From a virus (taxonomy: Duplodnaviria > Caudoviricetes), in IMG/VR virus record IMGVR_UViG_3300005805_000424, positions 1 through 25,966 of that record: a stretch of DNA of 25,966 bases. The stretch is one strand, 5' to 3'. The notes beneath the pieces are model-generated. The model was not told the DNA's origin. It saw only the letters and a program-made list of their open reading frames with translations, and did no database searches. Numbering within the stretch: the first letter of the stretch is position 1; every line of letters starts with the position of its first letter. Made by a program: the position numbers and the translations under genes. Below are positions 5,470 through 24,461 of the stretch, piece after piece.

Positions 5470-6378
5470 TTAAGGCGTTCCGGGTGAACCGAAAATTCCT
5501 CTGGCGTCGCTAAAGCCAAACGAGTACCGTTCGCGTGCCTTGTAGCGCACGTTACCTGTATCGAAATCGCCCTCAAAACCAGTCTTGATATTGACGCGCT
5601 CAAACATCTTCATGCCGTTAGGGGCATCGGTGAGGATGAAGAATGCATCAGGATCTGTCAGGTAATGGTTGACAGAGTAGCCTTGGGGAACCATGCCCAT
5701 GTTGCGGATAGCGTTGATGTCGTTATCTGCAGTACCAACACGCAGAGTTGACTTCAAGATGCGATCTGCAGTGAACTGGAGTTCCTTAGGAACAACCAAC
5801 TTCAAACCCTGAACAGCGATCTTCAAGCCACGCTCGTCCGTGAAGGCGGCGATGTCAATCAGAGCTTGCTCAAGTGAAGTTTCTGTCAAGTCAGCAGGAG
5901 TAGCGAGCTCGTTTTTGAGGTCTGGGCCGCCCAGTGTTGGGTGATCCAAAGCGCAAAGAGGCTTGCCGTCACCACCGATGGAGGTTGTGAAAGCACCATT
6001 CAGAACAGCCGCAGCTTTAATCTGTTTGGTTGTAGCCATTGAGCGAGCAAGAGCCTTGGTGTAACGGGCTGCAAGACGGTCGTAGAGGTTGTCCTCGACG
6101 GCTTCCTCGGTCAGCGAGAACGCCAATGCAATCGTTTCGTGTGTGTAGCGCGCTGTGTAGACTTCTTGTGCTTGGTCGTACGAGACGCCAGCACCTTCGT
6201 TCTTCACAGGAGCTTCACCGAAACCGGAGAGCATAACTTCCTCTTCAAAAGCACGATCAGAGGATTCGATATCATATATCTCTTCATGCTCTTTATCGTA
6301 GTTTTTGTACTCAAGACCAAACAAGGCGTTAAGACCTGGCTCAAGTTCCTTTACTAGTTGTGCGCGTGAGATAGCCAT
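5470..6378 (-). CDS. Major capsid protein (Mu gpT-like family, 302 aa)
   Basis: MAISRAQLVKELEPGLNALFG start, 'SDRAFEEEV.LSGFG.AP.K.EG', 'LVVPKEL', terminal 'RYKARERYSFG.SD.RGIFGSPG'; followed by a strong terminator. Confidence 0.9.
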   Translation of the reverse strand: MAISRAQLVKELEPGLNALFGLEYKNYDKEHEEIYDIESSDRAFEEEVMLSGFGEAPVKNEGAGVSYDQAQEVYTARYTHETIALAFSLTEEAVEDNLYDRLAARYTKALARSMATTKQIKAAAVLNGAFTTSIGGDGKPLCALDHPTLGGPDLKNELATPADLTETSLEQALIDIAAFTDERGLKIAVQGLKLVVPKELQFTADRILKSTLRVGTADNDINAIRNMGMVPQGYSVNHYLTDPDAFFILTDAPNGMKMFERVNIKTGFEGDFDTGNVRYKARERYSFGFSDARGIFGSPGTP

Positions 6379-12105: not shown

Positions 12106-13377
12106 TTAACCACCACCAGAATCGTTATACCAATAGTTTTGTTCTTGGTACTCTGGTGAGTTTAAAATGCTTTGCCGTATCTCTTCTTCCGACGCGTTTC
12201 TATTTGCAGCGATACCTGTTGGATCAGGAGCACGGCCCAGTAACTCTTGATACAAGGCCTCTATCCCCCCAATGTTGGGGTTTTGTGCTTGGTATTCTGG
12301 AGATGCGGCAATACTTTGGCGAATAACCTCGTCGGACTGCCCTACATTTGCAGCAACTCCTGTCGGGTCAGGGGCACGACCGAGCATTTCTTGGTATATG
12401 TTGGCAATCCCCCCACCAGGCGCTCCCGCACCTGCTCTTGCTTGATACTCAGGCGAGCTTAAAATGCTTTGGCGGATTGTTTCTGCAGAAGCGCCTTGAT
12501 TTGCTGCAAGCCCCGTTGGGTCAGGGGCACGACCTAGCAACTCTCGGTATAGTTGCGTAATAACGTCCGCGCCCACACCCGGTGATCCCGCTACAGGGGC
12601 GCTGGCGCCCGCAATCTTTTTCTTGTACTCATCCGAAGCTAGAATGCTTTTGCGGATTGTATCAATTGAAGCACCCTTATTTACAGCAAGACCTGTTGGG
12701 TCTACTTCTCGCCCTAACAACTCCCTGTACAAACGTGCTATGTCCGCCGTGCTTGCAGCGGCGGCGGCACCCGTTGATCCCACCACAGGGGCAGCCGCAG
12801 CACCTGCGCCAGACCTGCCGCTTATGTTACGTAAGCTTTCCGCTATCCTAGCGTCTTCTTGACTCTTCGCTGCATACTGTGCTTGGGAGGTAGCCTCCAT
12901 GGCACGTCGCCTTGCAGCACTATTCTCCGCACGAATAGCCTCGGTAAGTGCTGCTTGACGTGTGTAAAAATCATTGGCCGTGTTGTCCGCCGCTGTAGGC
13001 GTTCTTACTTGGGGAACGGGGACATTAAAGTCATAAATACTTGACCCAGTCGATCCAAAGGAAGGCTGTTGCACTAAAGGTGGTGCCGGCAAAACAGGGG
13101 AAACAGCCGCAGGCGACATGGATCCAAACATCGGACGCGGTGCCCTAAGCCCTGCGATGTCCGTGTTTAACGCCCCAAAAGTCGGCCTAAGCGCTCGGGG
13201 AGTAAAGGGAGTAGGTGTAGATGAAAGAAAGGCAAGAGGATCAGCGCTCTGCGCAGTAGGCAACGCGGTTTCTTCTACCAAACCGCCGTCTGCATATCCC
13301 ACCGATTGTTGTTGCAAAGGCGTTAAATCCTTCGCTCTACCTAACGCATCTAACATCATGCGAGAACGCGTATCCAT
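12106..13377 (-). CDS. 423-aa protein with four C-terminal DUF4214-like repeats
   Basis: Four copies of LY(R/Q)E(L/M)LGR(A/E)(P/V)DPTG.A.N...S.(E/D).IR.SI..S(P/D)EY; Pro/Ala-rich N-terminal half. Confidence 0.75.
   Translation of the reverse strand: MDTRSRMMLDALGRAKDLTPLQQQSVGYADGGLVEETALPTAQSADPLAFLSSTPTPFTPRALRPTFGALNTDIAGLRAPRPMFGSMSPAAVSPVLPAPPLVQQPSFGSTGSSIYDFNVPVPQVRTPTAADNTANDFYTRQAALTEAIRAENSAARRRAMEATSQAQYAAKSQEDARIAESLRNISGRSGAGAAAAPVVGSTGAAAAASTADIARLYRELLGREVDPTGLAVNKGASIDTIRKSILASDEYKKKIAGASAPVAGSPGVGADVITQLYRELLGRAPDPTGLAANQGASAETIRQSILSSPEYQARAGAGAPGGGIANIYQEMLGRAPDPTGVAANVGQSDEVIRQSIAASPEYQAQNPNIGGIEALYQELLGRAPDPTGIAANRNASEEEIRQSILNSPEYQEQNYWYNDSGGG
12145..12740 (-). repeat. 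Intragenic tandem repeats (4 x about 38 aa)
   Basis: Repeat visible in protein and DNA (GGGTCAGGGGCACGACC occurs twice on the + strand). Confidence 0.85.
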
Positions 13378-13407: not shown

Positions 13408-13437
13408 ATTGTATACCTCAATAGTACTCAGGTACAA
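13408..13437 (-). promoter_or_regulatory. Possible sigma70-like promoter for the repeat-protein/portal genes
   Basis: TTGTAC (13437-13432) - 18 nt - TACAAT (13413-13408), spanning the terL stop. Confidence 0.4.
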
Positions 13438-15919
13438 CCCCCGCATCTGAACTCGCCTCCTCCGCCTCATCGGAGTCCAGAGCAATAAAATTCCCCGTCC
13501 TAAACCGCATCCACGCCTGTACCGTACTGTCCACTTGGTCGTCATTGTCCCCGTTCGGGAATGCCGCGCACTCCTCGACCAACTCCTCGGCCCAATGCTC
13601 GTCAGGCGCCCACACCATCCCCGCCTCCAAAATAGGCGCCACCGCGTTGGCTCTAGAAACCTTGTCCTGCCCCGCTCGTCTGCCCCCAGGCGCGTACATC
13701 GTCACAGGAATCCCCACGCGCCGCAGCTCCTGCTGCAAAGTAGTTCCCGTCGCCTTCGCCTCAATCAGTACATTGTCAGGATTCCAGTACTTGTACTCCG
13801 CAATCGCCACCCGTTTGAGCTCAGGAAAGTCCCACCGACCGCGCTTGACGGCCAACAAGATAATGTTTGGCCCATCGTCCGCACTGGGGTAAAACACCCC
13901 CCACGTCGTAATCACAGAAAAGTCCGCCGTCTCCTTCTTGGAGTACGCCGTGTCGTAGCTCTGGATAATATACTCCACAGGGGGAGGCTCACTTTGCTGC
14001 CACACGCGCCACCACTCGCGCTTGAGAATCGCCCCCTCATCGGCCGTCGGGCGCTGCTGGTACATCGCATTCCACTTCTGCACGGACAGCGACGCGCGAA
14101 CCCCCTCCAACTCCTCAAGCTTCCAGAACTCCGGCCACAACGCGCGGCCACTGGGCAAGATAGCAGGAAACTCAATTACCTCCCACTGATCCGCATTCTT
14201 TCCCTGCTGTGACTTCAATAACCTAGCCGTCAGATCCTTGGTCCCCCATCGGGTCATAACCACCACAATCGCCCCGCCTGGCTGCAAACGTGTCCGTGGA
14301 CCCGAGCTATACCACTCCCACGCATTGTCCAACGCTAACTCACTCATCGCATCTTGCTCCGAGTGCGGATCATCAATCACCAAGACATCCGCGCCACGCC
14401 CCGTCATCGCTCCACCCACACCCACCGCAAAATACTCCCCTCCCTTATTCGTGTCCCACCGACCCGCCGCCTTGCTGTCTTGCTTCAACAGAACACCAGG
14501 GAAAATCTCCTTGTACACGTCCGTGTCCATCAAGTCGCGCACCTTCCTGCCAAAACGCACCGCTAACTCGCCATTGTGCGTCGCCTCAATTGCCTTGGTC
14601 CGCGGATCACGTCCCATCAAAAAAGCTGGCAGAAGATAGGATGCAAATTCGGATTTTGTGTTGTGAGTACAGATGTATCCTTCACCTGCCAAGAACAACC
14701 CATCCTCCCGATCCACCTTAATGCATTGCGTATCTCCGGTACAACCAAGCTTTCTAATGCGAATGTATCTGCCAAAAGTACGCTCACTTTTTAGGGTTCG
14801 CTCTTCTTTGCGGGGAAGGAAGCAAATGTTGCTGGCATAGAAAGAAATTTTCCAAGAATTGCCATAAGACTTGTCTCCGATCTTTGCCTCTGACACAAGG
14901 ATATTGGCTTTAATTCCTAGGCTCCGGATAAGCTCTGCCGCTTGGTCAATAAATGCCCGATTGCTCTGTGCAAAGAAACACTGGCCTTTTTTGGATATAT
15001 TCCCATCTGAATCCATTAGCCCTTTCAACAAGTCACGGCGCTGGCTTTTGCTCGCCGTCATGTACGCTGCAGGAATATGCTTGTTGCCCAATACGCCAAG
15101 ATCACGCAGTTTAACTTTAAGACCAAGAATGCCAAACGTCATTTTTGTAGACTGATCTGTTGTGGCATAGCCTCGACGCTCAACTTCAGGACGTATAAAT
15201 GCGGCGTCCTCGTCGTGTGACGTAATAATTCCATTATCTTTGTGTCCGTCACCTAACCATAGGCCAAGCACATAGGGGTCTATAGGCAGGTCTGCTTCTG
15301 CATATTGAACAGGCAAACAATCAGGCAATCTCGGAAGCCGTGGCTTTACCATGTGAATGCCTTTAATAAACTCTACCTCTCCCGATCTCTTGGTTCTCAG
15401 AACTTCGCCATTCTGCCGACGCCACAATTGTTCTGTGGTGTAGTCATGGTAAACGGAACCTTTTCTGTCAAGCCGGACAGTCCACAGGTGCTCGCCGTCC
15501 ACGTCAAGGTAAGTATTATCATCCGTCCAAACGCGATATAACTCCCTGTCCTTAAAGACCTCAGACTTCCCCAAAACCTTAACAGGGCATCCGTCAGGAC
15601 CAAAGACAAAGTCTCCTGGCTGCAGGTTTGCCATCGTTTTAAAACCGCTTGTGGTAGGTATTTTCATATCCACCATTATAGCATGTCTTGGAGGCATGTT
15701 CACAATCAACCGCTTTAACGTCCCATTGGCAATCCTGTCAAACGCATCAGCCATAATCCGGTGATGCTCACCAAGAATCGCGGCCGGCCAGACGTATTTG
15801 ACAAAGTCGATGAAGTGCGTACGCGCCTTTTCCTGCGCCTCCAACATCTGCAGACGCAACTCTAGCCGCAGCTTCTCAGCCTCTAACTCCGCCCCATGAC
15901 CGCTACGCATAGTATTCAT
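13418..15919 (-). CDS. terL: Terminase large subunit, intein-containing
   Basis: Walker A PPRH/TKS (split by the intein), 'TGRGADVLVIDDP' Walker B, 'VMTRW', nuclease motifs 'QSYDTA', 'IEAKATG', 'FPNGDNDDQVDS'; start ATG 15919 preferred to GTG 15940. Confidence 0.95.
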   Translation of the reverse strand: MNTMRSGHGAELEAEKLRLELRLQMLEAQEKARTHFIDFVKYVWPAAILGEHHRIMADAFDRIANGTLKRLIVNMPPRHAIMVDMKIPTTSGFKTMANLQPGDFVFGPDGCPVKVLGKSEVFKDRELYRVWTDDNTYLDVDGEHLWTVRLDRKGSVYHDYTTEQLWRRQNGEVLRTKRSGEVEFIKGIHMVKPRLPRLPDCLPVQYAEADLPIDPYVLGLWLGDGHKDNGIITSHDEDAAFIRPEVERRGYATTDQSTKMTFGILGLKVKLRDLGVLGNKHIPAAYMTASKSQRRDLLKGLMDSDGNISKKGQCFFAQSNRAFIDQAAELIRSLGIKANILVSEAKIGDKSYGNSWKISFYASNICFLPRKEERTLKSERTFGRYIRIRKLGCTGDTQCIKVDREDGLFLAGEGYICTHNTKSEFASYLLPAFLMGRDPRTKAIEATHNGELAVRFGRKVRDLMDTDVYKEIFPGVLLKQDSKAAGRWDTNKGGEYFAVGVGGAMTGRGADVLVIDDPHSEQDAMSELALDNAWEWYSSGPRTRLQPGGAIVVVMTRWGTKDLTARLLKSQQGKNADQWEVIEFPAILPSGRALWPEFWKLEELEGVRASLSVQKWNAMYQQRPTADEGAILKREWWRVWQQSEPPPVEYIIQSYDTAYSKKETADFSVITTWGVFYPSADDGPNIILLAVKRGRWDFPELKRVAIAEYKYWNPDNVLIEAKATGTTLQQELRRVGIPVTMYAPGGRRAGQDKVSRANAVAPILEAGMVWAPDEHWAEELVEECAAFPNGDNDDQVDSTVQAWMRFRTGNFIALDSDEAEEASSDAGVVPEYY
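14660..15682 (-). mobile_element. Intein (341 aa), Ala1 / class 3 signature, with LAGLIDADG homing endonuclease
   Basis: Removing AIMVD...ICTHN restores MPPRH-TKSEFASY; block B 'DGEHLW', block C 'LGLWLGDG', block E 'LKGLMDSDG', block F 'TQCIKV', block G 'THN/T'. Confidence 0.93.
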
Positions 15920-16246
15920 GGCGCAAATAATATCACGCACCGCGGAGCGCGAGGCAAGAAGAACGGCTCAAGGATCACGGCTCAAGGGCAAAAGTCATTT
16001 GCGTTTGAATTTTGCAAAAAATTTTGGGGAAATCGTTTATAGAACAAAGGGGGAGGGTTCACGGATCAAGGGGCTAAGGTCGCTTTAGTCATTTGCGATT
16101 CGGCGCTAATATTTTGTGCGAAATAGGGCTTAAGCTGCCGCTAGGGAAAAAGGGGGGCTATTTTGCGGAGTGAGTGCTAACTAACCTAGGGTAAACCCGA
16201 AGTGCTCAAGGTACCCTGAGGGTTAACCCTGAGCCAAGCGCCTAGG

Positions 16247-16292
16247 ATAGGAAAAGCCTATCGGATTCCTGGACCTGATAGGCGTTGACAAT
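16247..16292. promoter_or_regulatory. Paired ATAG-N7-CTAT (LysR/OxyR-type) boxes, unit 1
   Basis: ATAG-GAAAAGC-CTAT, 16 nt, ATAG-GCGTTGA-CAAT. Confidence 0.45.
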
Positions 16293-16358
16293 GGCGCTGG
16301 ATGCGTGGATCGTGCGGCATGGATCACGGATCACGTGCCACGGATCACGGATCACGAT

Positions 16359-16374
16359 TGTTTCACGTGAAACA
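16359..16374. promoter_or_regulatory. parS: parS site 1
   Basis: Exact TGTTTCACGTGAAACA, the canonical bacterial chromosomal ParB-binding palindrome. Confidence 0.88.
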
Positions 16375-16411
16375 ATTGAAACGATCCGTGACCCATGCCC
16401 ACGGATCACGC

Positions 16412-16456
16412 ATAGGGAAAGCCTATCACCCGCCTGGATTCATAGCCCACGACTAT
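16412..16456. promoter_or_regulatory. Paired ATAG-N7-CTAT boxes, unit 2
   Basis: ATAG-GGAAAGC-CTAT, 15 nt, ATAG-CCCACGA-CTAT. Confidence 0.45.
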
Positions 16457-16475
16457 CGGACCAGATTCCCTCAAT

Positions 16476-16491
16476 TGTTTCACGTGAAACA
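16476..16491. promoter_or_regulatory. parS: parS site 2
   Basis: Exact TGTTTCACGTGAAACA within a 22-bp perfect palindrome (16473-16494). Confidence 0.88.
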
Positions 16492-16663
16492 ATTTGGATG
16501 GATCACGCACCACGGATCACGGAAAAATCTAGAAGAAAAACGGATCACGGATCACGTGCCTATTTTAGAAAATATTGGTGAGTTTAGGGGAATAGTACGT
16601 AAATACATACTATTGGTAGTGAATTCCACTATTTTTTAATTATGATACGGGAATTTTCCCTAT

Positions 16664-16679
16664 TGTTTCACGTGAAACA
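16664..16679. promoter_or_regulatory. parS: parS site 3
   Basis: Exact TGTTTCACGTGAAACA. Confidence 0.88.
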
Positions 16680-16883
16680 CCAATAAAAACAAGCGATATT
16701 TTGGCCTACACCTAGGCGTCAAAAAGGTAAAAAATCGCTCAAAACCCGTTTAAATGCGTCCTATGGCCATTAGGGAAAATCTATTGATCCCTCCAGGTTA
16801 ATAGATATTTATTTGTGGTGAATTGTGGTACATCCATTAAAATCAAAGAGTAGGATTTTTATTAACTTTATAGGGGTTACGTA

Positions 16884-17093
16884 ATGAAGAAATACATTAT
16901 CGAAACACGCACGTTTTGCGATGGATGGGTTAACACGTGGACGGATGATGGAAAACCCGTTATTTTTGATAACTTCCAAGAGGCGCAAGAGGAGTTAAAT
17001 ATTTACTTGTTTGGGCTATCCATTGACGTTGATTTAGGCAATATTGAAGATTACGATCCCGAAGATTTTCGTGTAACTGAAATAGGCGAATAA
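16884..17093 (+). CDS. Small acidic hypothetical protein (69 aa)
   Basis: AGGGG RBS; first gene of the AT-rich plus-strand block; 'GWVNTW.....P..FD...EA..EL' pattern. Confidence 0.75.
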   Translation: MKKYIIETRTFCDGWVNTWTDDGKPVIFDNFQEAQEELNIYLFGLSIDVDLGNIEDYDPEDFRVTEIGE

Positions 17094-17095
17094 TC

Positions 17096-17365
17096 ATGCA
17101 TAGACTCTTTTATAACTACGATGGAAAACTACCACGCATTAAGGGATTTATAGACGATTCTTGGCGGAATGACGTTTGCCCATCGTTACTAAATGAATCA
17201 AAAAACCTTAAGTTATGGGTAGATTATAAAAATCCTAATAGGCGTGAATGTGGCGGTATGCGTTACACGTTATGCGCCTATAACAATAATGCGGATCAAT
17301 ACGAAGAATTATTCGCCACAGAATCACTAACTGAAATGAGGGGATATATAAATGAAAAATATTGA
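17096..17365 (+). CDS. Hypothetical protein (89 aa)
   Basis: 'F.D.SWRNDVCPS......L.LWVDY.NP..RE' pattern; tight gene packing. Confidence 0.75.
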   Translation: MHRLFYNYDGKLPRIKGFIDDSWRNDVCPSLLNESKNLKLWVDYKNPNRRECGGMRYTLCAYNNNADQYEELFATESLTEMRGYINEKY

Positions 17366-17543
17366 ATCCGCACGGGATTTTATAAAGGTTTGTGATTACA
17401 AGGGTTATTTCCACGGAAAAACATATTACATAGACAAAACTAAACAGGGTTATGTTGCATCAACAGGCGGGATTTATTGCGAGAAATTTAATGCACGTAC
17501 GCTAAAGGATTTATCCGATCAATTACTAAAGGTCACAAAATGA
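17352..17543 (+). CDS. Hypothetical protein (63 aa)
   Basis: GAGGGG RBS; overlaps both neighbours by a few nt. Confidence 0.65.
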   Translation: MKNIESARDFIKVCDYKGYFHGKTYYIDKTKQGYVASTGGIYCEKFNARTLKDLSDQLLKVTK

Positions 17544-17815
17544 AACACTTAAATATGACTGATGAGCACGTTAATACCGTGCATTATGCATGCTTAATGC
17601 TTAACTCATTGGGGTTAAACGATCCACACTTATCACAGAATAACGAAGGTGATCCCGTGATCGCTTTCACGTTTAACGATGTGGGCATTTTTAACCCGTA
17701 TATGACAGAAAATGGGTTTGACGAATGCGATGCGGGTGATTATGGCCTGACAGGCATTCAAGCAAATGCACTATGCAAAATTAACGATGCATTAGGCTTT
17801 AATTGGGAGTTATAA
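17540..17815 (+). CDS. Hypothetical protein (91 aa)
   Basis: ATGA coupling, AAGG RBS. Confidence 0.65.
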   Translation: MKHLNMTDEHVNTVHYACLMLNSLGLNDPHLSQNNEGDPVIAFTFNDVGIFNPYMTENGFDECDAGDYGLTGIQANALCKINDALGFNWEL

Positions 17816-17818
17816 ATA

Positions 17819-17986
17819 ATGAGCACTAAACAAAACCTTTTAAAAGAATTTGATGCTATGCGTGGCGTGGGCATTAGAGTACCGGATAATGCTTACAGCA
17901 TATTAGATACCGAAAACCTAGGCGATTATGAGGGCATGGGGCTAAGTGATTTAGCGGATCTTTTAATACAGTTATCGGAGTTATGA
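17819..17986 (+). CDS. Small acidic protein (55 aa), missing from the ORF track
   Basis: MSTKQNLLKEFDAMRGVGIRVPDNAYSILDTENLGDYEGMGLSDLADLLIQLSEL; GGGAG RBS upstream. Confidence 0.7.
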   Translation: MSTKQNLLKEFDAMRGVGIRVPDNAYSILDTENLGDYEGMGLSDLADLLIQLSEL

Positions 17987-17989
17987 AAA

Positions 17990-18055
17990 ATGAAACACGA
18001 TATTTTATGCGTGGTGTTATTCGGTTTACTTATTGTTGCTGCATGCTTTTTATAA
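17990..18055 (+). CDS. Putative 21-aa single-pass membrane peptide
   Basis: MKHDILCVVLFGLLIVAACFL; GGAG 9 nt upstream of the ATG. Confidence 0.45.
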   Translation: MKHDILCVVLFGLLIVAACFL

Positions 18056-18131
18056 AAACTATAGTCCGCCAGGAATTGATAGGAAAATACAATCTTGGCG
18101 GATCGTAAAAACTTTATAATTAATTCAGTTT

Positions 18132-18514
18132 TAAACCTATACAGAGAGAAAAATCATGGGACGATACTTTTTGCAAGATATGGCGAATGCATATTTAGAG
18201 TGTGCATATTTTACCGATGTTGAAGAAAATGAAAGCGAAGAAATTGAATTTACACCCACGTTTAAAAACAATGCATATAAAGCATGTTGCGATTTTGAAA
18301 ATGCATGCGCCACGCTAGAAATTGATATCAGGGTTTATTCACCAGAACAATTAGGGCACGATCTGTGGTTAACCCGTAACGGGCATGGCGCGGGATTTTG
18401 GGATCGCAAAGAAATATATAATGATCATGCTGATTTATTTACAGGCATGGCACGTGCTCAGGGTTACCACGAAATAGAATTCGTATAATATTAGTAAACC
18501 TATACAGAGAGAAA
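18132..18514 (+). repeat. 20-bp direct repeat leader TAAACCTATACAGAGAGAAA (18132-18151 and 18495-18514)
   Basis: Identical 20-mer before two consecutive start codons, each with a TATAAT shortly upstream. Confidence 0.8.
18156..18488 (+). CDS. Conserved phage protein (110 aa)
   Basis: 'GHDLWLTRNGHGAGFWDR' motif that I recognise from phage hypothetical proteins; function unknown. Confidence 0.8.
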   Translation: MGRYFLQDMANAYLECAYFTDVEENESEEIEFTPTFKNNAYKACCDFENACATLEIDIRVYSPEQLGHDLWLTRNGHGAGFWDRKEIYNDHADLFTGMARAQGYHEIEFV

Positions 18515-18520
18515 GAGATC

Positions 18521-19270
18521 ATGAAAAAAAGACAATTGTTTTCCATTGGTACGAATGCCAAAACAGTAAAGGGCAATAAGTTAGGTTTCCTAACTGGTGT
18601 AATGTATTTCGCACCTAGTGATTTATCAGGTTTTCAGGTTTGCCCAATGGCAAAAATGGCACGCTGCGAAGATCCATGTTTGTATAAATCCGGCCGTGGT
18701 GTTTTTAATAGTACCCAAAATGCACGCATCAAAAAGACACAAGAGTTTTTTACGGAACAAAACGAGTTTATGCATACTTTGGTGTACTCAATTAATGCAT
18801 TGATTCGCAAAGCAAAAAAAGAAAAACTAATCCCATTAGTGCGACTAAACGGTACAAGCGATATCCGATGGGAAAATATTCGTTTTGAGTACGAAAATAA
18901 GTACCTAACTATTTTTGAAGTATTTCCAGATATTCAATTTTATGACTATACAAAAATAGTGAATCGCAAAGACTTACCCGCAAACTATGATCTAACTGTT
19001 AGTTATTCCGGTGCTCCAGGTTTCCAAAAGTATATTCAAAAATCTATAGATTCTGGTGATCGCATAGCGGCCGTTTTTCGCACTCAAGAAAATATCCCCG
19101 ATACTTTTTTAGGCATGGATTGCATAGGTGGTGATGATAGCGACGTGCGACACGTAGAGCCAAAAAATGTAATCGTAGCTCTTTACGCTAAAGGTAAAGC
19201 AAAACGGGATACATCGGGCTTTGTAGTGGATGCACCACGCAAAGTGATACCAATACGTTTAGCCGCATAA
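18521..19270 (+). CDS. GP88-like protein (249 aa)
   Basis: 'CP.A....C...CL..SGRG', 'RLNGTSDI.WE', 'FPDIQFYDYTK', 'GD.SD.R', 'L.AKG.A' motifs. Confidence 0.75.
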   Translation: MKKRQLFSIGTNAKTVKGNKLGFLTGVMYFAPSDLSGFQVCPMAKMARCEDPCLYKSGRGVFNSTQNARIKKTQEFFTEQNEFMHTLVYSINALIRKAKKEKLIPLVRLNGTSDIRWENIRFEYENKYLTIFEVFPDIQFYDYTKIVNRKDLPANYDLTVSYSGAPGFQKYIQKSIDSGDRIAAVFRTQENIPDTFLGMDCIGGDDSDVRHVEPKNVIVALYAKGKAKRDTSGFVVDAPRKVIPIRLAA

Positions 19271-19285
19271 CTCTAGGGGTTAAAA

Positions 19286-19540
19286 ATGGATGATTACGAT
19301 TTAGGTAAACGTCACGGGATCGCACGGAAAGAAAAGCGATACCCAAATAACAATAGTTATGCTGCGGGATATATAGTGGGCATAAACACATTAACCACGG
19401 ATCAGATTCTACAAATGGCCGTGACAATTGGAATGATGCGCTATGCATTAGAGCGTACACAAACCCTTTTGAACGATCCAGATGCATCTAGTTTTGATGC
19501 TGATCTAGTTTTAAACTTAATTGAAAAGGCCTTGAAATGA
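19286..19540 (+). CDS. Hypothetical protein (84 aa)
   Basis: AGGGG RBS; coupled to the next gene. Confidence 0.65.
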   Translation: MDDYDLGKRHGIARKEKRYPNNNSYAAGYIVGINTLTTDQILQMAVTIGMMRYALERTQTLLNDPDASSFDADLVLNLIEKALK

Positions 19541-19758
19541 ACAAAATTTATCGCGCCAATTACGAATCCCGTAATTTTTCTTTTGAGGCGTATGGCAAAA
19601 CTGAACACGACGCGCGCGCTGCGTTAATGATCGGTTTGTTGCGCCATATGCACCAATACAATCTTGACCACGATTGGTATCAAAAAGACGATATCTCAAT
19701 TGTTGAATACCAAATGAATACCCCATATCGGGATTACAGCATCATCAAGGGTGAATAA
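19537..19758 (+). CDS. Hypothetical protein (73 aa)
   Basis: ATGA coupling; 'SRNFSFEAYG.T...A...L..GL..H..QY' pattern. Confidence 0.7.
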   Translation: MNKIYRANYESRNFSFEAYGKTEHDARAALMIGLLRHMHQYNLDHDWYQKDDISIVEYQMNTPYRDYSIIKGE

Positions 19759-19759
19759 C

Positions 19760-19936
19760 ATGAACAAACCACAACTATATACTATGACAGGTTTTGTCAG
19801 GGTTACGATTGAAATTATTGCAGCGGATGATGAATCAGCAGAAAAACAATTCTACGATGCCCAATTATCGGACTTTGTTTTAAAAGAAATTGAATTAATC
19901 GAAGTTGAACATTTAGGGGAACATTATGCCAATTAA
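19760..19936 (+). CDS. Small acidic protein (58 aa)
   Basis: ATG 19760 after AAGGGT RBS preferred to GTG 19751; 'V.IEI.A.D.ESAE' pattern. Confidence 0.6.
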   Translation: MNKPQLYTMTGFVRVTIEIIAADDESAEKQFYDAQLSDFVLKEIELIEVEHLGEHYAN

Positions 19937-20153
19937 ATACTTGAACGGCCAATTAGTTGAACATGGGGATATTGTGCACGTTAAAAACCGCGCCTATTAT
20001 GTGAGGGATATTTACGACACAATGGACACGATTACCCTATCTAAGATGGATGAATCAAAGGACCAAGTGAATGTAAAACTGTCGGATATAGGCGCCTATC
20101 GTGACAACGTGCACCCCTTATTTAAGGACATTTTGGGGGCGATCAAACCATGA
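19926..20153 (+). CDS. Hypothetical protein (75 aa)
   Basis: AGGGGA RBS; 'Y.NGQ.V..GD.V' beta-rich start. Confidence 0.65.
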   Translation: MPIKYLNGQLVEHGDIVHVKNRAYYVRDIYDTMDTITLSKMDESKDQVNVKLSDIGAYRDNVHPLFKDILGAIKP

Positions 20154-20286: not shown

Positions 20287-20706
20287 TTAGCCATCGGCCA
20301 ACAGAGCACGCATCTCGGACCAATCTACAGACCGTACAGGCCATTGAGCGATGGGGGCTACCCTTACGCCTTCATCAAACAGGAAAAGCGCCTGAGCGCC
20401 CCTGTAGAGCTTTAGCGTGGGTTTGTCCCCAGATGACTCAGGTGGATAGTACTGGACCAGTATGAAAGTCGGGCACCCAATACTAGCGTGCTTAAGATGA
20501 AATGAGTACTGGTGGGGGCTAAGGTTTATCTTGAGTCCCGCTTTCACTACCTTCAGCTCCATCATCACGAACATCGAATGCGAATCCAAAGCTATCAACA
20601 GGTCCGGGATCCCGAGGTTTACCCGGTTCTCGATCTTCGTGATCAGGGCTCGCGGCAAATTTTCGTTTAACTTTTTCGAGAGCATTGCTTCCGGTTTCAT
20701 CGGCAT
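20287..20706 (-). CDS. PD-(D/E)xK nuclease (VRR-NUC / Holliday-junction-resolvase-like, 139 aa)
   Basis: 'KPE', 'IEN....GIPDLLI', 'MELKV', 'LSPHQ..FH' motifs. Confidence 0.8.
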   Translation of the reverse strand: MPMKPEAMLSKKLNENLPRALITKIENRVNLGIPDLLIALDSHSMFVMMELKVVKAGLKINLSPHQYSFHLKHASIGCPTFILVQYYPPESSGDKPTLKLYRGAQALFLFDEGVRVAPIAQWPVRSVDWSEMRALLADG

Positions 20707-21319
20707 CGCTTACATCCTCAATTTGATTGACTTCAATGTCCAACACCCCGCCTGGGGAGCTGCCGTATAACTGCTTGATTTCTTGAAGCTTTCGCATGAC
20801 TTCTTCTTTGCTCATGCTGTCAATCGTGCCGTGCCGGATTTCCTTTCGATCAATGTAGATGGTGCCCAACGCTTGCCCGCGCCTGTACTCCGCGGCCACC
20901 GCAGCACCGTAATTACCCGCTTCGAGCGCGCGATCTCTAATCATCTGCATGTCGCGCATATGCCGTTCGAACGTCGTGCCGTATTTTTCGGCCAGTTCAC
21001 GCCTAAACTCTTGAATTGCGGCCACCACGTGGGGATGCGTCTCTGGCGTGGTCAACGCTCTGGCCATGGGACCCGCGCTAGAGTCTGAATAACCCGCACG
21101 TAATGCAGCCTCTTTCATCGTGACCTGCCCCTCGCCCGACACCAACTCATGCACAAACCGCCATTCCCGCTCGCTGAGCGCTTTAAATCTCCCGCCCTTA
21201 GGCTTGGGTACGGGTTCACTCAAACGCATCGCCACGGACGCTTTAAGCAGCGTGGGGGGCTTTTTAAGCGAACGCGATGCCTTACGCCGTTCATTCTTCT
21301 GTTCTTTTGACAAAGTCAT
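20519..21319 (-). CDS. terS: Terminase small subunit
   Basis: 'LSERE.RFV.E.........KEAALRAGYS..SA...A..L' HTH start, 'ALEAGNYGAAVAAE..RG.A.G.IYIDRKEI'; ATG 21319 follows GAGGAGG RBS. Confidence 0.8.
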   Translation of the reverse strand: MTLSKEQKNERRKASRSLKKPPTLLKASVAMRLSEPVPKPKGGRFKALSEREWRFVHELVSGEGQVTMKEAALRAGYSDSSAGPMARALTTPETHPHVVAAIQEFRRELAEKYGTTFERHMRDMQMIRDRALEAGNYGAAVAAEYRRGQALGTIYIDRKEIRHGTIDSMSKEEVMRKLQEIKQLYGSSPGGVLDIEVNQIEDVSDADETGSNALEKVKRKFAASPDHEDREPGKPRDPGPVDSFGFAFDVRDDGAEGSESGTQDKP

Positions 21320-21321
21320 GG

Positions 21322-21579
21322 CTAAACCCTCCTCACAATCCAAATCCCATCCTCTTGCCCCTGCCGGACAGTAAACCGCCTTGTCGGGTAACGACGATAA
21401 AACGATTTTAGTGCGCTTCTAATATTTTCCACTTCAACAGGCGACTCACACAAGAAGTAGTCCCCGCGTATCATGGACTTGAACGGATATCTAATCCTTT
21501 TGCTTGTCGAACTTCGACGCATGTAGTGCTGTTTTTGAGTAATTCCAACCAGCCCCACAACCTCATCTCTTACAGGCAT
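21322..21579 (-). CDS. Small basic putative DNA-binding protein (85 aa)
   Basis: 'YPF..M..GD.F..........RSA..........F.VR......I...RV' pattern; GGAGG RBS. Confidence 0.7.
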   Translation of the reverse strand: MPVRDEVVGLVGITQKQHYMRRSSTSKRIRYPFKSMIRGDYFLCESPVEVENIRSALKSFYRRYPTRRFTVRQGQEDGIWIVRRV

Positions 21580-22098: not shown

Positions 22099-22503
22099 AT
22101 GGAAGAAAAAAAGCCTTGTTCAAAGTGTAAGGAAGACAAATTTTTATCTTTTTTTCACCGCAGTACAAAAGCATCTGATGGGCATGCTTCTTGGTGCAAG
22201 ACATGTGTTAATGGTTTTGCCAGGCAATCAAGAAAGCGCACGTATTTTCCTGAAAATAAAAGAAAGTGGCAGCTTAAAACACGTTATGGACTGACTCCTG
22301 AAAAGGTTGAAACAATTTTGGTTAAACAGCAACATCAGTGCGTATTGTGTTTAAGTTCTTTAGATAAATTTCACATTGATCATTGCCATAACACAGGTCA
22401 GGTTAGGGGTATTTTGTGCCACAAATGCAATATTCGACTAGGGGGTTGGGATGATCTCCAATGGCGTAACAAAGCTTTATCTTATCTTGGGATTCACGTA
22501 TGA
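22099..22503 (+). CDS. Recombination endonuclease VII-family (His-Me) nuclease, probable homing endonuclease (134 aa)
   Basis: N-terminal CxxC...CxxC, 'YGLT', 'Q...CVLC', 'HIDHCHNTGQVRGILCHKCN..LG'. Confidence 0.88.
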   Translation: MEEKKPCSKCKEDKFLSFFHRSTKASDGHASWCKTCVNGFARQSRKRTYFPENKRKWQLKTRYGLTPEKVETILVKQQHQCVLCLSSLDKFHIDHCHNTGQVRGILCHKCNIRLGGWDDLQWRNKALSYLGIHV

Positions 22504-24461
22504 AATTCATTTCAATCTGTTCTGGTATTGAGGCTGCGAGCGTGGCTTGGGAGCCCCTTGGTTGGGAGGCGGTGGCTTTTTCTGAGATTGAGCCGTTCCC
22601 GAGTGCTGTTTTGGCTCATCACTACCCTGACGTTCCTAATTTTGGGGACATGACGAAGTTTGATACGTGGCCAGAGGAGATTTTTCTGGAGGCGGATTTG
22701 ATTGTTGGTGGTCCACCCTGCCAAGCTTTTTCTGTGGCGGGAAATCGTGAGGGCTTGGCGGATGACCGAGGCAATCTGACGCTTGTGTATGTACAACTTA
22801 TCAATCACGCTGATTTAATTAGGAAAAAGCATGGAAAAGAACCAGTTATCGCTTTTTATGAAAACGTCCCCGGACTCTTCTCAGACAAGACCAACGCATA
22901 TGGCTGCCTTCTTGGAGCGCTTGCCGGAGAAGATGGTGCGCTCCTCGCTCCAGGGGGCAAATGGACAGACGCTGGTTGCGTGTCTGGTCCCCAAAGAGCA
23001 ATGGCGTGGAGACTCTTGGACGCCCAATACTTCGGCTTGGCACAACGTCGCAGACGTGTGTTCCTTGTCGCAGGTGCTGGAGACGGGTTTAATCCCGCCG
23101 AGATTCTTTTTGAGCGAGAGGGCGTGCGCAGGGATTTTGCGCCGAGCCGAGAAACGGGGCAAGCGGTTGCCGGAACAATTGCAGCGCGCTTTGGAGACGG
23201 TGGCCAACCGACTGGAGGCGTAGGAGTAGCGCACGTTGCGCCTACCGTTACTGGTGGGCCTCCTTTTAGTCGCACAGGCAATGAACGCGTGGAATGCGAT
23301 GCCCTCGTAGCGACCACTGTTATTGGAAACGTGGAGGGCGGGGCGGCCACTACCCTGTCTTCACGGGAGTACAAGGGCTTGTCTTGTGGGCGCGACGGCA
23401 TGACGAGTGCGGCGGTGGTGTATGAGCCTATTGCCCTTGCCATCCCGATCCATGATCAGGCCACGCGGTTCGCGGGCAAGCGTGGGGACAAGCAAGATGG
23501 CAAGGGCAATGGACTGGGGATAGGTGAGCCCGGAGCCCCGATGAACACGCTCACCAAGGGGGATCGCCATGCGGTGGCGCATGCCATACCTCTTGACCTA
23601 CGCAATGCGGGTCGTGATCCAGAGAAGTATGACGCAATCAACCGTCAAGGCGTGGGGGTCGGTGAGGCGGGTGATCCATCACACACTATTACGTCCGCTT
23701 TTGTGCATGGCGTGGCGCAGTCTGTTGAATCAACGCCTGATACCTTGTATAATAAAGGTATCAAACAAGGGGAACATGATGCCTGCACACAAGAAACCTA
23801 CGCCGGAACGCTATTGCGAACATTGCTCCAAGAGGTTGGAGAGGAAACTTTTGCCAAATGGGGACTTGGAATATTTAATTCACTTCAATCGTCGGAAATA
23901 TTGCGGGAGAAGCTGCATGGCAGCGGCTTTCGACCTGCGACATTCTCCCGTAGTTGGGTGGTCTACTGCACATTATCACGCAAGGAAAATGGTTCCTGCT
24001 GGTTGTTGCAATCGTTGCTCGAAGCCGAATGCCCTCGATGTACATCACAAGGATGGAAACCATCTGAACAATACGCTAGAGAACTTGGAGCGTATTTGTC
24101 GGGGTTGTCACAACCTGGAGCACAGTCGCAGAGGTTCTTGCAAGATTTGTGGCAAGCCGCAGAAGGGTTTGGGCTACTGCGAGAAGCATTATCAAAGATT
24201 CAAGAAATGGGGCGACCCTTTAATGGTCAAACACAACCAGTTTTCTCCAGCATGCAAGTTAGACGATTGACCTGCGAAGAATGTGAATTTTTACAGGGAT
24301 TTCCACGCGGTTACACCAACATCCCGTGGCGTGGCAAGCCAGAGGCGCCTGATGGTCCGAGGTACAAGGCGCTTGGTAACTCATGGGCGGTACCGAACGT
24401 GCGTTGGATAGGCGCGCGTATTGATCAATATTTGAAGGCACCGAAAGGAGAAGTGAAATGA
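22500..24461 (+). CDS. C5 cytosine DNA methyltransferase (653 aa) with expanded variable region
   Basis: Motif I 'CSGIEA', IV 'GGPPCQAFS', VI 'ENVPG', VIII 'QRRRRVF', IX 'RRLT..ECE.LQGFP', X 'YKALGNS'. Confidence 0.93.
   Translation: MKFISICSGIEAASVAWEPLGWEAVAFSEIEPFPSAVLAHHYPDVPNFGDMTKFDTWPEEIFLEADLIVGGPPCQAFSVAGNREGLADDRGNLTLVYVQLINHADLIRKKHGKEPVIAFYENVPGLFSDKTNAYGCLLGALAGEDGALLAPGGKWTDAGCVSGPQRAMAWRLLDAQYFGLAQRRRRVFLVAGAGDGFNPAEILFEREGVRRDFAPSRETGQAVAGTIAARFGDGGQPTGGVGVAHVAPTVTGGPPFSRTGNERVECDALVATTVIGNVEGGAATTLSSREYKGLSCGRDGMTSAAVVYEPIALAIPIHDQATRFAGKRGDKQDGKGNGLGIGEPGAPMNTLTKGDRHAVAHAIPLDLRNAGRDPEKYDAINRQGVGVGEAGDPSHTITSAFVHGVAQSVESTPDTLYNKGIKQGEHDACTQETYAGTLLRTLLQEVGEETFAKWGLGIFNSLQSSEILREKLHGSGFRPATFSRSWVVYCTLSRKENGSCWLLQSLLEAECPRCTSQGWKPSEQYARELGAYLSGLSQPGAQSQRFLQDLWQAAEGFGLLREALSKIQEMGRPFNGQTQPVFSSMQVRRLTCEECEFLQGFPRGYTNIPWRGKPEAPDGPRYKALGNSWAVPNVRWIGARIDQYLKAPKGEVK
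22831..23223 (+). CDS. Alternative-frame methyltransferase beta subunit-like protein (M.EcoHK31I-beta type, 130 aa)
   Basis: Nested in the +1 frame; AGGA RBS 6 nt before the ATG; 'KTSPD', 'W..N', 'CSLSQVLET...P.RFFLS..AC.GILRRA..RGK.LP' motif. Confidence 0.7.
   Translation: MEKNQLSLFMKTSPDSSQTRPTHMAAFLERLPEKMVRSSLQGANGQTLVACLVPKEQWRGDSWTPNTSAWHNVADVCSLSQVLETGLIPPRFFLSERACAGILRRAEKRGKRLPEQLQRALETVANRLEA
23725..23773 (+). promoter_or_regulatory. Internal promoter, operator-like palindrome and RBS for the nested HNH gene
   Basis: TTGAAT (23725-23730) - 17 nt - TATAAT (23748-23753); perfect 9-bp inverted repeat TGATACCTT/AAGGTATCA (23738-23763) around the -10; AAGGGGA RBS at 23767-23773. Confidence 0.75.
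23776..24270 (+). CDS. HNH endonuclease nested in the +1 frame of the methyltransferase (164 aa)
   Basis: 'CNRC...DVHHKDGNHLNNTLENLERICRGCHNLEH' HNH core plus Zn-finger-like CEHC..CGRSC and CKIC..GYCEKHYQR..KWGDP; start ATG 23776 or 23779. Confidence 0.85.
   Translation: MMPAHKKPTPERYCEHCSKRLERKLLPNGDLEYLIHFNRRKYCGRSCMAAAFDLRHSPVVGWSTAHYHARKMVPAGCCNRCSKPNALDVHHKDGNHLNNTLENLERICRGCHNLEHSRRGSCKICGKPQKGLGYCEKHYQRFKKWGDPLMVKHNQFSPACKLDD

Follow-up and report, generated by a model that had tools for sequence, protein, structure and literature searches.

On bacterial chromosomes, parS is the site at which the CTP-bound ParB clamp (Spo0J/ParB) loads, closes on the DNA and spreads. Phage-plasmid cassettes such as P1 parABS and N15 sopABC combine genes for a cognate ParA and ParB with sites of their own. 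For the Bacillus phages phi29 and Nf, Meijer et al. reportedly described in 2005 host parS sites that are used through host Spo0J/ParB. Five host parS sites are present in the virulent Bacillus phage phi29, whose genome is segregated into the prespore with the help of host Spo0J (PMC2731898; PMC9437464). The accessible part of another study takes as its subject phages with their own parB (PMC10286716). In the main text of openly available papers, we found no survey of host parS in phages other than the phi29 family or in phages of non-sporulating hosts; the words parS and parB do not occur in the main text of PMC9599517, nor does parB in bioRxiv 2019.12.14.876532.

Here we analyzed a single virus record of 25,966 bases (the window, meaning the whole stretch of DNA under analysis), which represents approximately 43% of a genome of roughly 60 kb. 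The original prediction for this DNA was that it holds three perfect chromosomal parS sites with no parA or parB in view. We compared the locus with its relatives, with other phages and with candidate hosts, and we list its features in Table 1.

Three parS sites in the gap upstream of terL

We found three exact copies of TGTTTCACGTGAAACA, the consensus parS as given in the accessible part of PMC7383237, and no further match in the window at up to three mismatches. Shuffled versions of the window (n = 100) contained a mean of 0.14 matches and none of them reached three (0/100), confirming that the three copies are beyond chance. Each copy is thus the complete 16-bp chromosomal-type consensus palindrome. 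The origin and parAB neighborhood typical of chromosomal parS is missing here, with phage genes flanking the sites on both sides and contigs bridging them. All three sites fall between the terL start and the first small plus-strand ORF, and the only ORFs running across them are short GATCAC-repeat frames without support, in agreement with their description as non-coding. Site 3 overlaps the -35 hexamer of a promoter-like match pointing toward terL; the promoter scan yielded one such match where 2.1 were expected, which is chance level and not significant alone.

To these sites we could add contigs from lake runs (four runs of one study, among which X1 may be the source of the record), and contigs from three of the four runs examined cover all three sites. 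One contig, from run X2 (14432-18200), links terL, the three sites and the small genes; therefore, an assembly chimera with a host origin region, the artifact that would have undone the original prediction, is ruled out. Other contigs of runs X1 and X3 match parS alone (16353-16679) and have different flanks, so that parS is present in further lake genomes as well. Immediately before terL (15957-15988), a 14-bp repeat varies in copy number among the lake runs, with an extra copy in X2.

The gap itself is rich in repeats. The sequence CACGGATCAC occurs six times in the window, always inside this gap, and the period-7 repeats may possibly be a packaging or terminus signal. The conserved block with its two GGG-W4-CCC palindromes is possibly a second host-factor or packaging site; a similar palindrome is found near the parS of Alcaligenes phage QDWS535.

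Table 1. Coordinates, strand and supporting observations for the features of the window
Feature	Position	Strand	Observation
Major capsid protein	5470..6378	-	90% identity to DSL-LC04, 70% to HTVC023P and HTVC027P
Terminase large subunit (terL) with intein-like LAGLIDADG insert	13418..15919	-	PHROGs/Pfam; ATG at 15919
Non-coding gap between late genes (terL-portal-capsid) and divergent small genes	15920..16883	.	Holds the three parS sites
Conserved block with two GGG-W4-CCC palindromes	16184..16235	.	Nearly invariant; 4/4 close relatives aligned
Period-7 GGATCAC/CACGGAT repeats around sites 1 and 2	16316..16556	.	Sequence repeats
parS site 1	16359..16374	.	Exact consensus; 440 bp upstream of terL ATG; aligned in L002, L003
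parS site 2	16476..16491	.	Exact consensus; 557 bp upstream of terL start; aligned in L001, L002, L003
parS site 3	16664..16679	.	Exact consensus; 745 bp upstream of terL start; kept in L003, deleted in L001/L002
Small AT-rich ORF cluster	16884..20153	+	38% GC vs 50%; includes a GP88-family gene
Small nuclease-like gene adjoining terS	20287..20706	-	PHROG 2165; no Pfam match
Terminase small subunit (terS)	20519..21343	-	PHROGs

Phage identity

A search of the 34 main ORFs against PHROGs identified terL, portal, capsid, GroES, adaptors, terS and a methyltransferase. The capsid identities in Table 1 assign the phage to the HTVC023P-type group, and the related terminase, GroES and gene order agree with this, as does PolA, which comes from the relative G001 and lies outside the window. 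By these sequence criteria, the window phage is a freshwater member of the group, predicted to be of lytic type and approximately 60 kb when complete. HTVC023P-type phages lack an integrase and are reported to grow lytically, per the accessible text of bioRxiv 2019.12.14.876532. Twelve matches to genome contigs were considered as a clue to the host and rejected, as these were short contigs in unrelated bins and most likely mis-binned phage.

Several further features were seen in the window. The intein-like insert in terL (14650-15690, ~345 amino acids between PPRH and TKS) has LAGLIDADG and homing-endonuclease matches and is absent from L001 and L002, relatives at 97% identity. A repeat protein with DUF4214 occupies the interval between terL and portal (12106-13377) and is present in G001 as well. 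The 653-amino acid methyltransferase frame (22500-24461) contains two nested same-strand ORFs, one at 22831-23223 and the other, an HNH ORF, at 23569-24270; this arrangement is suggestive of a gene that is interrupted or frameshifted and contains a mobile insert. The small AT-rich ORFs are probably early genes. The gene adjoining terS is presumably nuclease-like, a label that we take from its PD...ExK motif.

Search for partition genes

In the window, neither parA nor parB was found among the main ORFs (34 searched against PHROGs and 23 against Pfam), consistent with the claim that none is in view in this ~43% of the genome. We then turned to relatives, entering 42 records, a subset of the relatives' loci, into a ParB_N search. 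No IMG/VR relative exceeded the cut-off (0/39), including those at least 90% complete (0/6). HTH_ParB was found in none of 16 records and AAA_31 (ParA-type) in none of 13, while control genomes matched; among relatives at least 90% complete both counts were 0/7. A weak ParB_N match in G023 (E 0.005, 11 bits, inside a 1031-amino acid frame) fell below the cut-off, and ParB_N matches on G040 and G041 belonged to bacterial bins; all three were set aside. The nearest near-complete relative, G001 (96% complete), has three sites beside terL and encodes PolA, primase and helicases, and no ParA, ParB or integrase was detected among its 80 ORFs. Because over half of the window phage's genome is missing, it is through relatives only that we infer its own genome to be without parB. 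The phi29-type arrangement of a virulent-type genome lacking integrase and par genes was likewise found through relatives only, and the complete relatives do not encode the cognate ParB that would have argued against use of a host protein.

Conservation and position across the phage family

As the original prediction had proposed, we surveyed parS in related phages. We picked the best 80 of 449 relatives by terL, irrespective of the motif; 55 of these had at least 1 kb of upstream sequence, forming 35 clusters at 95% identity, and 25 were too short and were dropped. The exact GTTYCACGTGRAAC core was present within 1 kb upstream of terL in 22 of the 35 clusters, and in 26 of 35 with at most one mismatch, counts that do not represent independent events since the clusters share ancestry. 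The site was absent from seven of the 35 clusters within the sequence examined. The remaining 502 kb of the relatives' DNA held three sites. When we repeated the count with permuted palindromes, 1,255 of 1,259 scored zero and the other four overlap the same site.

The family sites vary as chromosomal parS does. Twenty-nine of 33 match GTTYCACGTGRAAC exactly (one further mismatch was allowed, and the pattern itself permits Y/R), and variation falls mainly at the two positions variable in chromosomal parS and at the outer bases. In L003, both variable positions are changed at all three sites with the palindrome preserved; the window's form and that of L003 are both among the chromosomal parS types in the accessible part of PMC7022226 (Table 1).

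Position changes from lineage to lineage. L001 and L002 have lost the distal site and gained others. In the terL tree, support for the clade with three sites is strong (100/99); elsewhere in the tree, branches carry a single site at -48, at -103 to -111 or behind terL. Across relatives, sites were found at -48, at -103 to -111, in clusters at -430 to -770, behind terL and behind the capsid gene; most relatives keep a single site, and three or four copies are seen in the window's clade. A site that moves in this way fits a clamp-loading (spreading) site better than an operator.

Sampling of viral loci by the motif only also led to this family: HTVC023P-type phages made up 14 of the 80 parS-bearing loci in one sample (71 distinct contigs) and 15 of the 80 in another, near-duplicates included. 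In all 29 of these family loci, the site falls in the block that runs from terS to ~1 kb past the capsid gene and makes up about a quarter of the genome; in none does it adjoin conserved polymerase, primase or helicase genes. The exact site is absent from DSL-LC04, HTVC023P, 023Pt_psg01, CRP-901, CRP-902, Pag-Yong1 and Caulobacter phage RW; eight of ten records tested together lack it, HTVC023P, CRP-901, CRP-902 and Caulobacter phage RW among them. In the distant relative Alcaligenes phage QDWS535, a single site occupies the corresponding gap, flanked by divergent small genes and the terminase. By these comparisons, parS is a trait of the family and a real feature under selection.

A codon-embedded site and SAR11 genomes

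The cultured pelagiphage HTVC027P has one exact core at 16413, in codons for AFHVKH. The ORF that bears it (L298:4215-4600, ~16215-16600) is small, lies beside terS and is unannotated in the GenBank record, and period-7 GCTTG-type repeats follow it. Homologues of the window's gene at 20287..20706 in L002, HTVC027P and many marine relatives have parS within FHVKH codons; the window's own copy reads SFHLKH and is without parS.

Because the HTVC027P site falls inside an unannotated ORF, we assessed it by codon use across 82 homologous genes (40 clusters at 90%), of which 35 clusters code AFHVKH. Exact parS codons were found in 15 of these 35 clusters, all marine, compared to 0.29 expected from codon use. 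Across 39 conserved columns, GCG and GTG are the two most over-used codons, and the parS haplotype is 65-fold over expectation, with windows outside or at the edge of the site reaching at most about 24-fold. This codon over-use provides moderate evidence for selection on the embedded site and not stronger evidence, because a site-bearing query was used and the homologous genes have a common ancestry, which inflates the control windows.

Two of three SAR11 single-cell genomes have the same core inside gidB, adjoining parA-parB; these two have one exact chromosomal site each, in genomes that are incomplete. ParAB and the core parS thus occur together in SAR11 single-cell genomes, the SAR11 genomes that the analysis covered. 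The cultured carriers of the family site infect Pelagibacter (HTVC027P) and Alcaligenes (QDWS535), both of which are non-sporulating.

parS in other phages

To see how widely phages carry parS, we estimated the number of IMG/VR stretches at ~5,700 and ~2,600 for two parS forms (by extrapolation, 2 and 3 of the 64 parts having been searched) versus 39 and 46 for control 16-mers (two only, one of them not palindromic). Contamination by host chromosomes was rejected as the source, as none of 160 sampled loci contained ParA, ParB or GidA in the DNA stretch around the site. The first sample, typed by scanning 107 of 161 picked ORFs, included 18 phi29-like contigs, two Microviridae and nine contigs of other phages in which a terminase gene lies close to the site. 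A terminase match near the exact site was found at 22 of 80 loci, unrelated phages included. Two other phages have five exact parS directly upstream of a distant terL of 26-28% identity (L104:2657-3444 and L146:5001-5928).

Among cultured phages, a 30-mer with the site matched 412 records at 1,299 places, with Clostridium, Microbacterium, Arthrobacter, Bacillus and Gordonia as the leading names. A control palindrome matched 135 records at 144 places. Escherichia ranked second for the control and was not within the ten commonest names for the parS 30-mer; to our knowledge, E. coli has no chromosomal ParB. For the Pseudomonas-type parS form, Pseudomonas phages lead (21/96 records). Records of Listeria phages LM 4-11-1 and 4-14-1, unannotated fragments that are likely host DNA, were set aside as suspect and not counted.

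The same 14-16-mer is found in phage groups as unrelated as phi29-like phages, Microviridae, T5-like phages and actinophages. Exact parS is present in Microviridae contigs L089, L119 and L409, and there are many Microviridae records among the cultured-phage matches. Vibrio phage phi3 (T5-like) has two intergenic sites (L391:822-835 and 2935-2948) in the annotated terminal repeat, around the A1 gene. As a host control, T5-like phages proved not discriminating, because the three other Vibrio phages and all four enterobacterial phages lack sites (1/4 versus 0/4 with sites). We also counted exact parS in Pseudomonas phages NoPa (3), SYP (6) and XD2 (4) and in Gordonia phage Hail2Pitt (2) (L385, L386, L384 and L392, respectively), mostly among small-ORF regions.

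Possible functions of the phage sites

The comparisons make it highly probable that host ParB binds and loads on the phage parS sites. The original prediction had the phage borrowing host ParABS in cis to position, shield or titrate; the borrowing appears well supported by conservation together with the lack of par genes. We favor positioning or segregation of phage DNA, to which we give about an even chance, for two reasons: no other use of host parS has been demonstrated on a phage, and relocation of the site is tolerated. Host ParB clamps would load on the three sites and spread over a few kb of the packaging-head module, and host ParA or SMC would then handle the phage genome as if it were an origin region, in the way that Spo0J acts for phi29. 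Phage DNA would thereby be positioned by the partition machinery and passed on when the cell divides, and the phage would gain persistence, or a favorable placement ahead of lysis in cells that grow slowly. A chromosomal parABS cassette stabilizes a plasmid, per the accessible text of PMC4820964. Against this reading, the site is dispensable, as the seven clusters and several cultured relatives without it demonstrate, and the published purpose in phi29 is spore entry. Nothing in the comparisons points to shielding of phage DNA.

Partition alone does not account for the confinement of the sites to one module. That confinement, from terS to the capsid gene in every motif-picked family locus, would suit host ParB acting as a repressor and copy-number timer, its spreading damping the late packaging-head genes until phage replication dilutes it. 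Many sites lie 48 or ~105 bp before the terL start, site 3 of the window overlaps the promoter-like match in a conserved block, and the accessible texts describe P. aeruginosa ParB repressing genes beside parS3 and parS4 (PMC7022226) and ParB spreading that can silence neighbors (PMC4820964). Even so, we regard such a timer as rather unlikely, since sites also occur behind terL, behind the capsid gene and inside coding sequence, the two closest relatives have lost site 3 and acquired others, and the promoter match is at chance level. We are more skeptical that tens of replicating phage genomes serve as a decoy that strips ParB from the origin and stalls host segregation or division. Phage copies would outnumber the single chromosomal site of the two (incomplete) SAR11 genomes, the window's clade reaches three or four sites per genome, and ParB loss blocks division in Caulobacter and Hyphomonas (PMC7022226, accessible part of Table 1); however, most relatives have a single site, a decoy could be located anywhere and yet the sites keep to one module, and titration may be a mere side effect.

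The terminase matches beside exact sites in unrelated phages, the period-7 repeats surrounding the window sites and the location of both phi3 sites within a terminal repeat would be expected if host ParB or SMC marked the start of packaging or the end that enters first, the clamp organizing DNA near a pac site or terminus or tethering the first-entering DNA. This seems improbable to us: contigs have no depth step or end near the sites (contigs cannot show ends), the four sites of XD2 are scattered, and no termini are given in the accessible parts of PMC9599517, bioRxiv 2019.12.14.876532 and PMC10149686. It is also conceivable that the sequence is an operator of a phage protein (TerS or a small regulator) whose match to parS is coincidental, or that CACG-rich repeats and FHVKH codons yield it as a neutral by-product. 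A weak HTH match was found in TerS and an RHH protein is encoded, CACG repeats abound in the gap, and much of the embedded site follows from the peptide FHVK alone. Such an origin is very improbable, given that the same 14-16-mer recurs across unrelated phage groups, that Pseudomonas phages top the list for the Pseudomonas-type form, that Escherichia drops out of the top ten for parS while ranking second for the control, and that GCG and GTG are the most over-used of the conserved codons. These readings, including the partition of phage DNA that we favor, are not mutually exclusive.

If partition by the host is correct, lytic phages of SAR11 and fresh waters would join host chromosome segregation through a 16-bp cis element with no gene of their own, an element to which gene-based annotation is blind. 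It would also offer a mechanism for carrier states or delayed lysis without an integrase, a long-open question in nutrient-poor waters. We think it possible, though somewhat doubtful, that borrowing of the host centromere is a common and overlooked strategy of lytic phages in non-sporulating bacteria. Cultured carriers make the idea testable, and HTVC027P (with the site) and HTVC023P (without it), which infect the same SAR11 strain, form a natural test pair.

Comparison with known systems

New here are the conservation of parS across a whole family, the turnover in its position and its codon-embedded form in a cultured SAR11 phage. Within the HTVC023P, HTVC027P, DSL-LC04 and CRP-901 group, the window phage shares capsid identity of 60-90%, gene order, GroES, PolA and the lack of an integrase, and it differs in carrying a site that several cultured members do not have. 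Compared to chromosomal ParABS centromeres, the 16-mer is identical, the tolerated variants and the clustering are alike, and embedding in coding sequence is shared (gidB in SAR11), whereas the sites described here lie on phage DNA, and neither parAB nor gidA nor an origin is close to them. Like the P1 and N15 cassettes, the sites would place a centromere on an extrachromosomal phage genome; this is not a cassette of that type, because the cognate genes are absent, with complete relatives encoding neither ParA nor ParB.

The closest parallel is phi29 and Nf, and "undescribed", as the cis-acting system was originally termed, is too strong given the five host parS sites used via Spo0J in phi29 (PMC2731898, accessible part). 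Both systems combine a virulent-type phage and several chromosomal-type parS sites with no phage par genes. The window phage belongs to an unrelated family whose hosts are aquatic and probably without spores (SAR11 for one cultured carrier); aquatic proteobacteria are not known to form spores. The spore-entry step of phi29 cannot apply to the cultured carriers of the family site, because their hosts are non-sporulating. Unlike in phi29 and Nf, the sites of the window's family cluster in the packaging-head module, with no known Spo0A-type switch.
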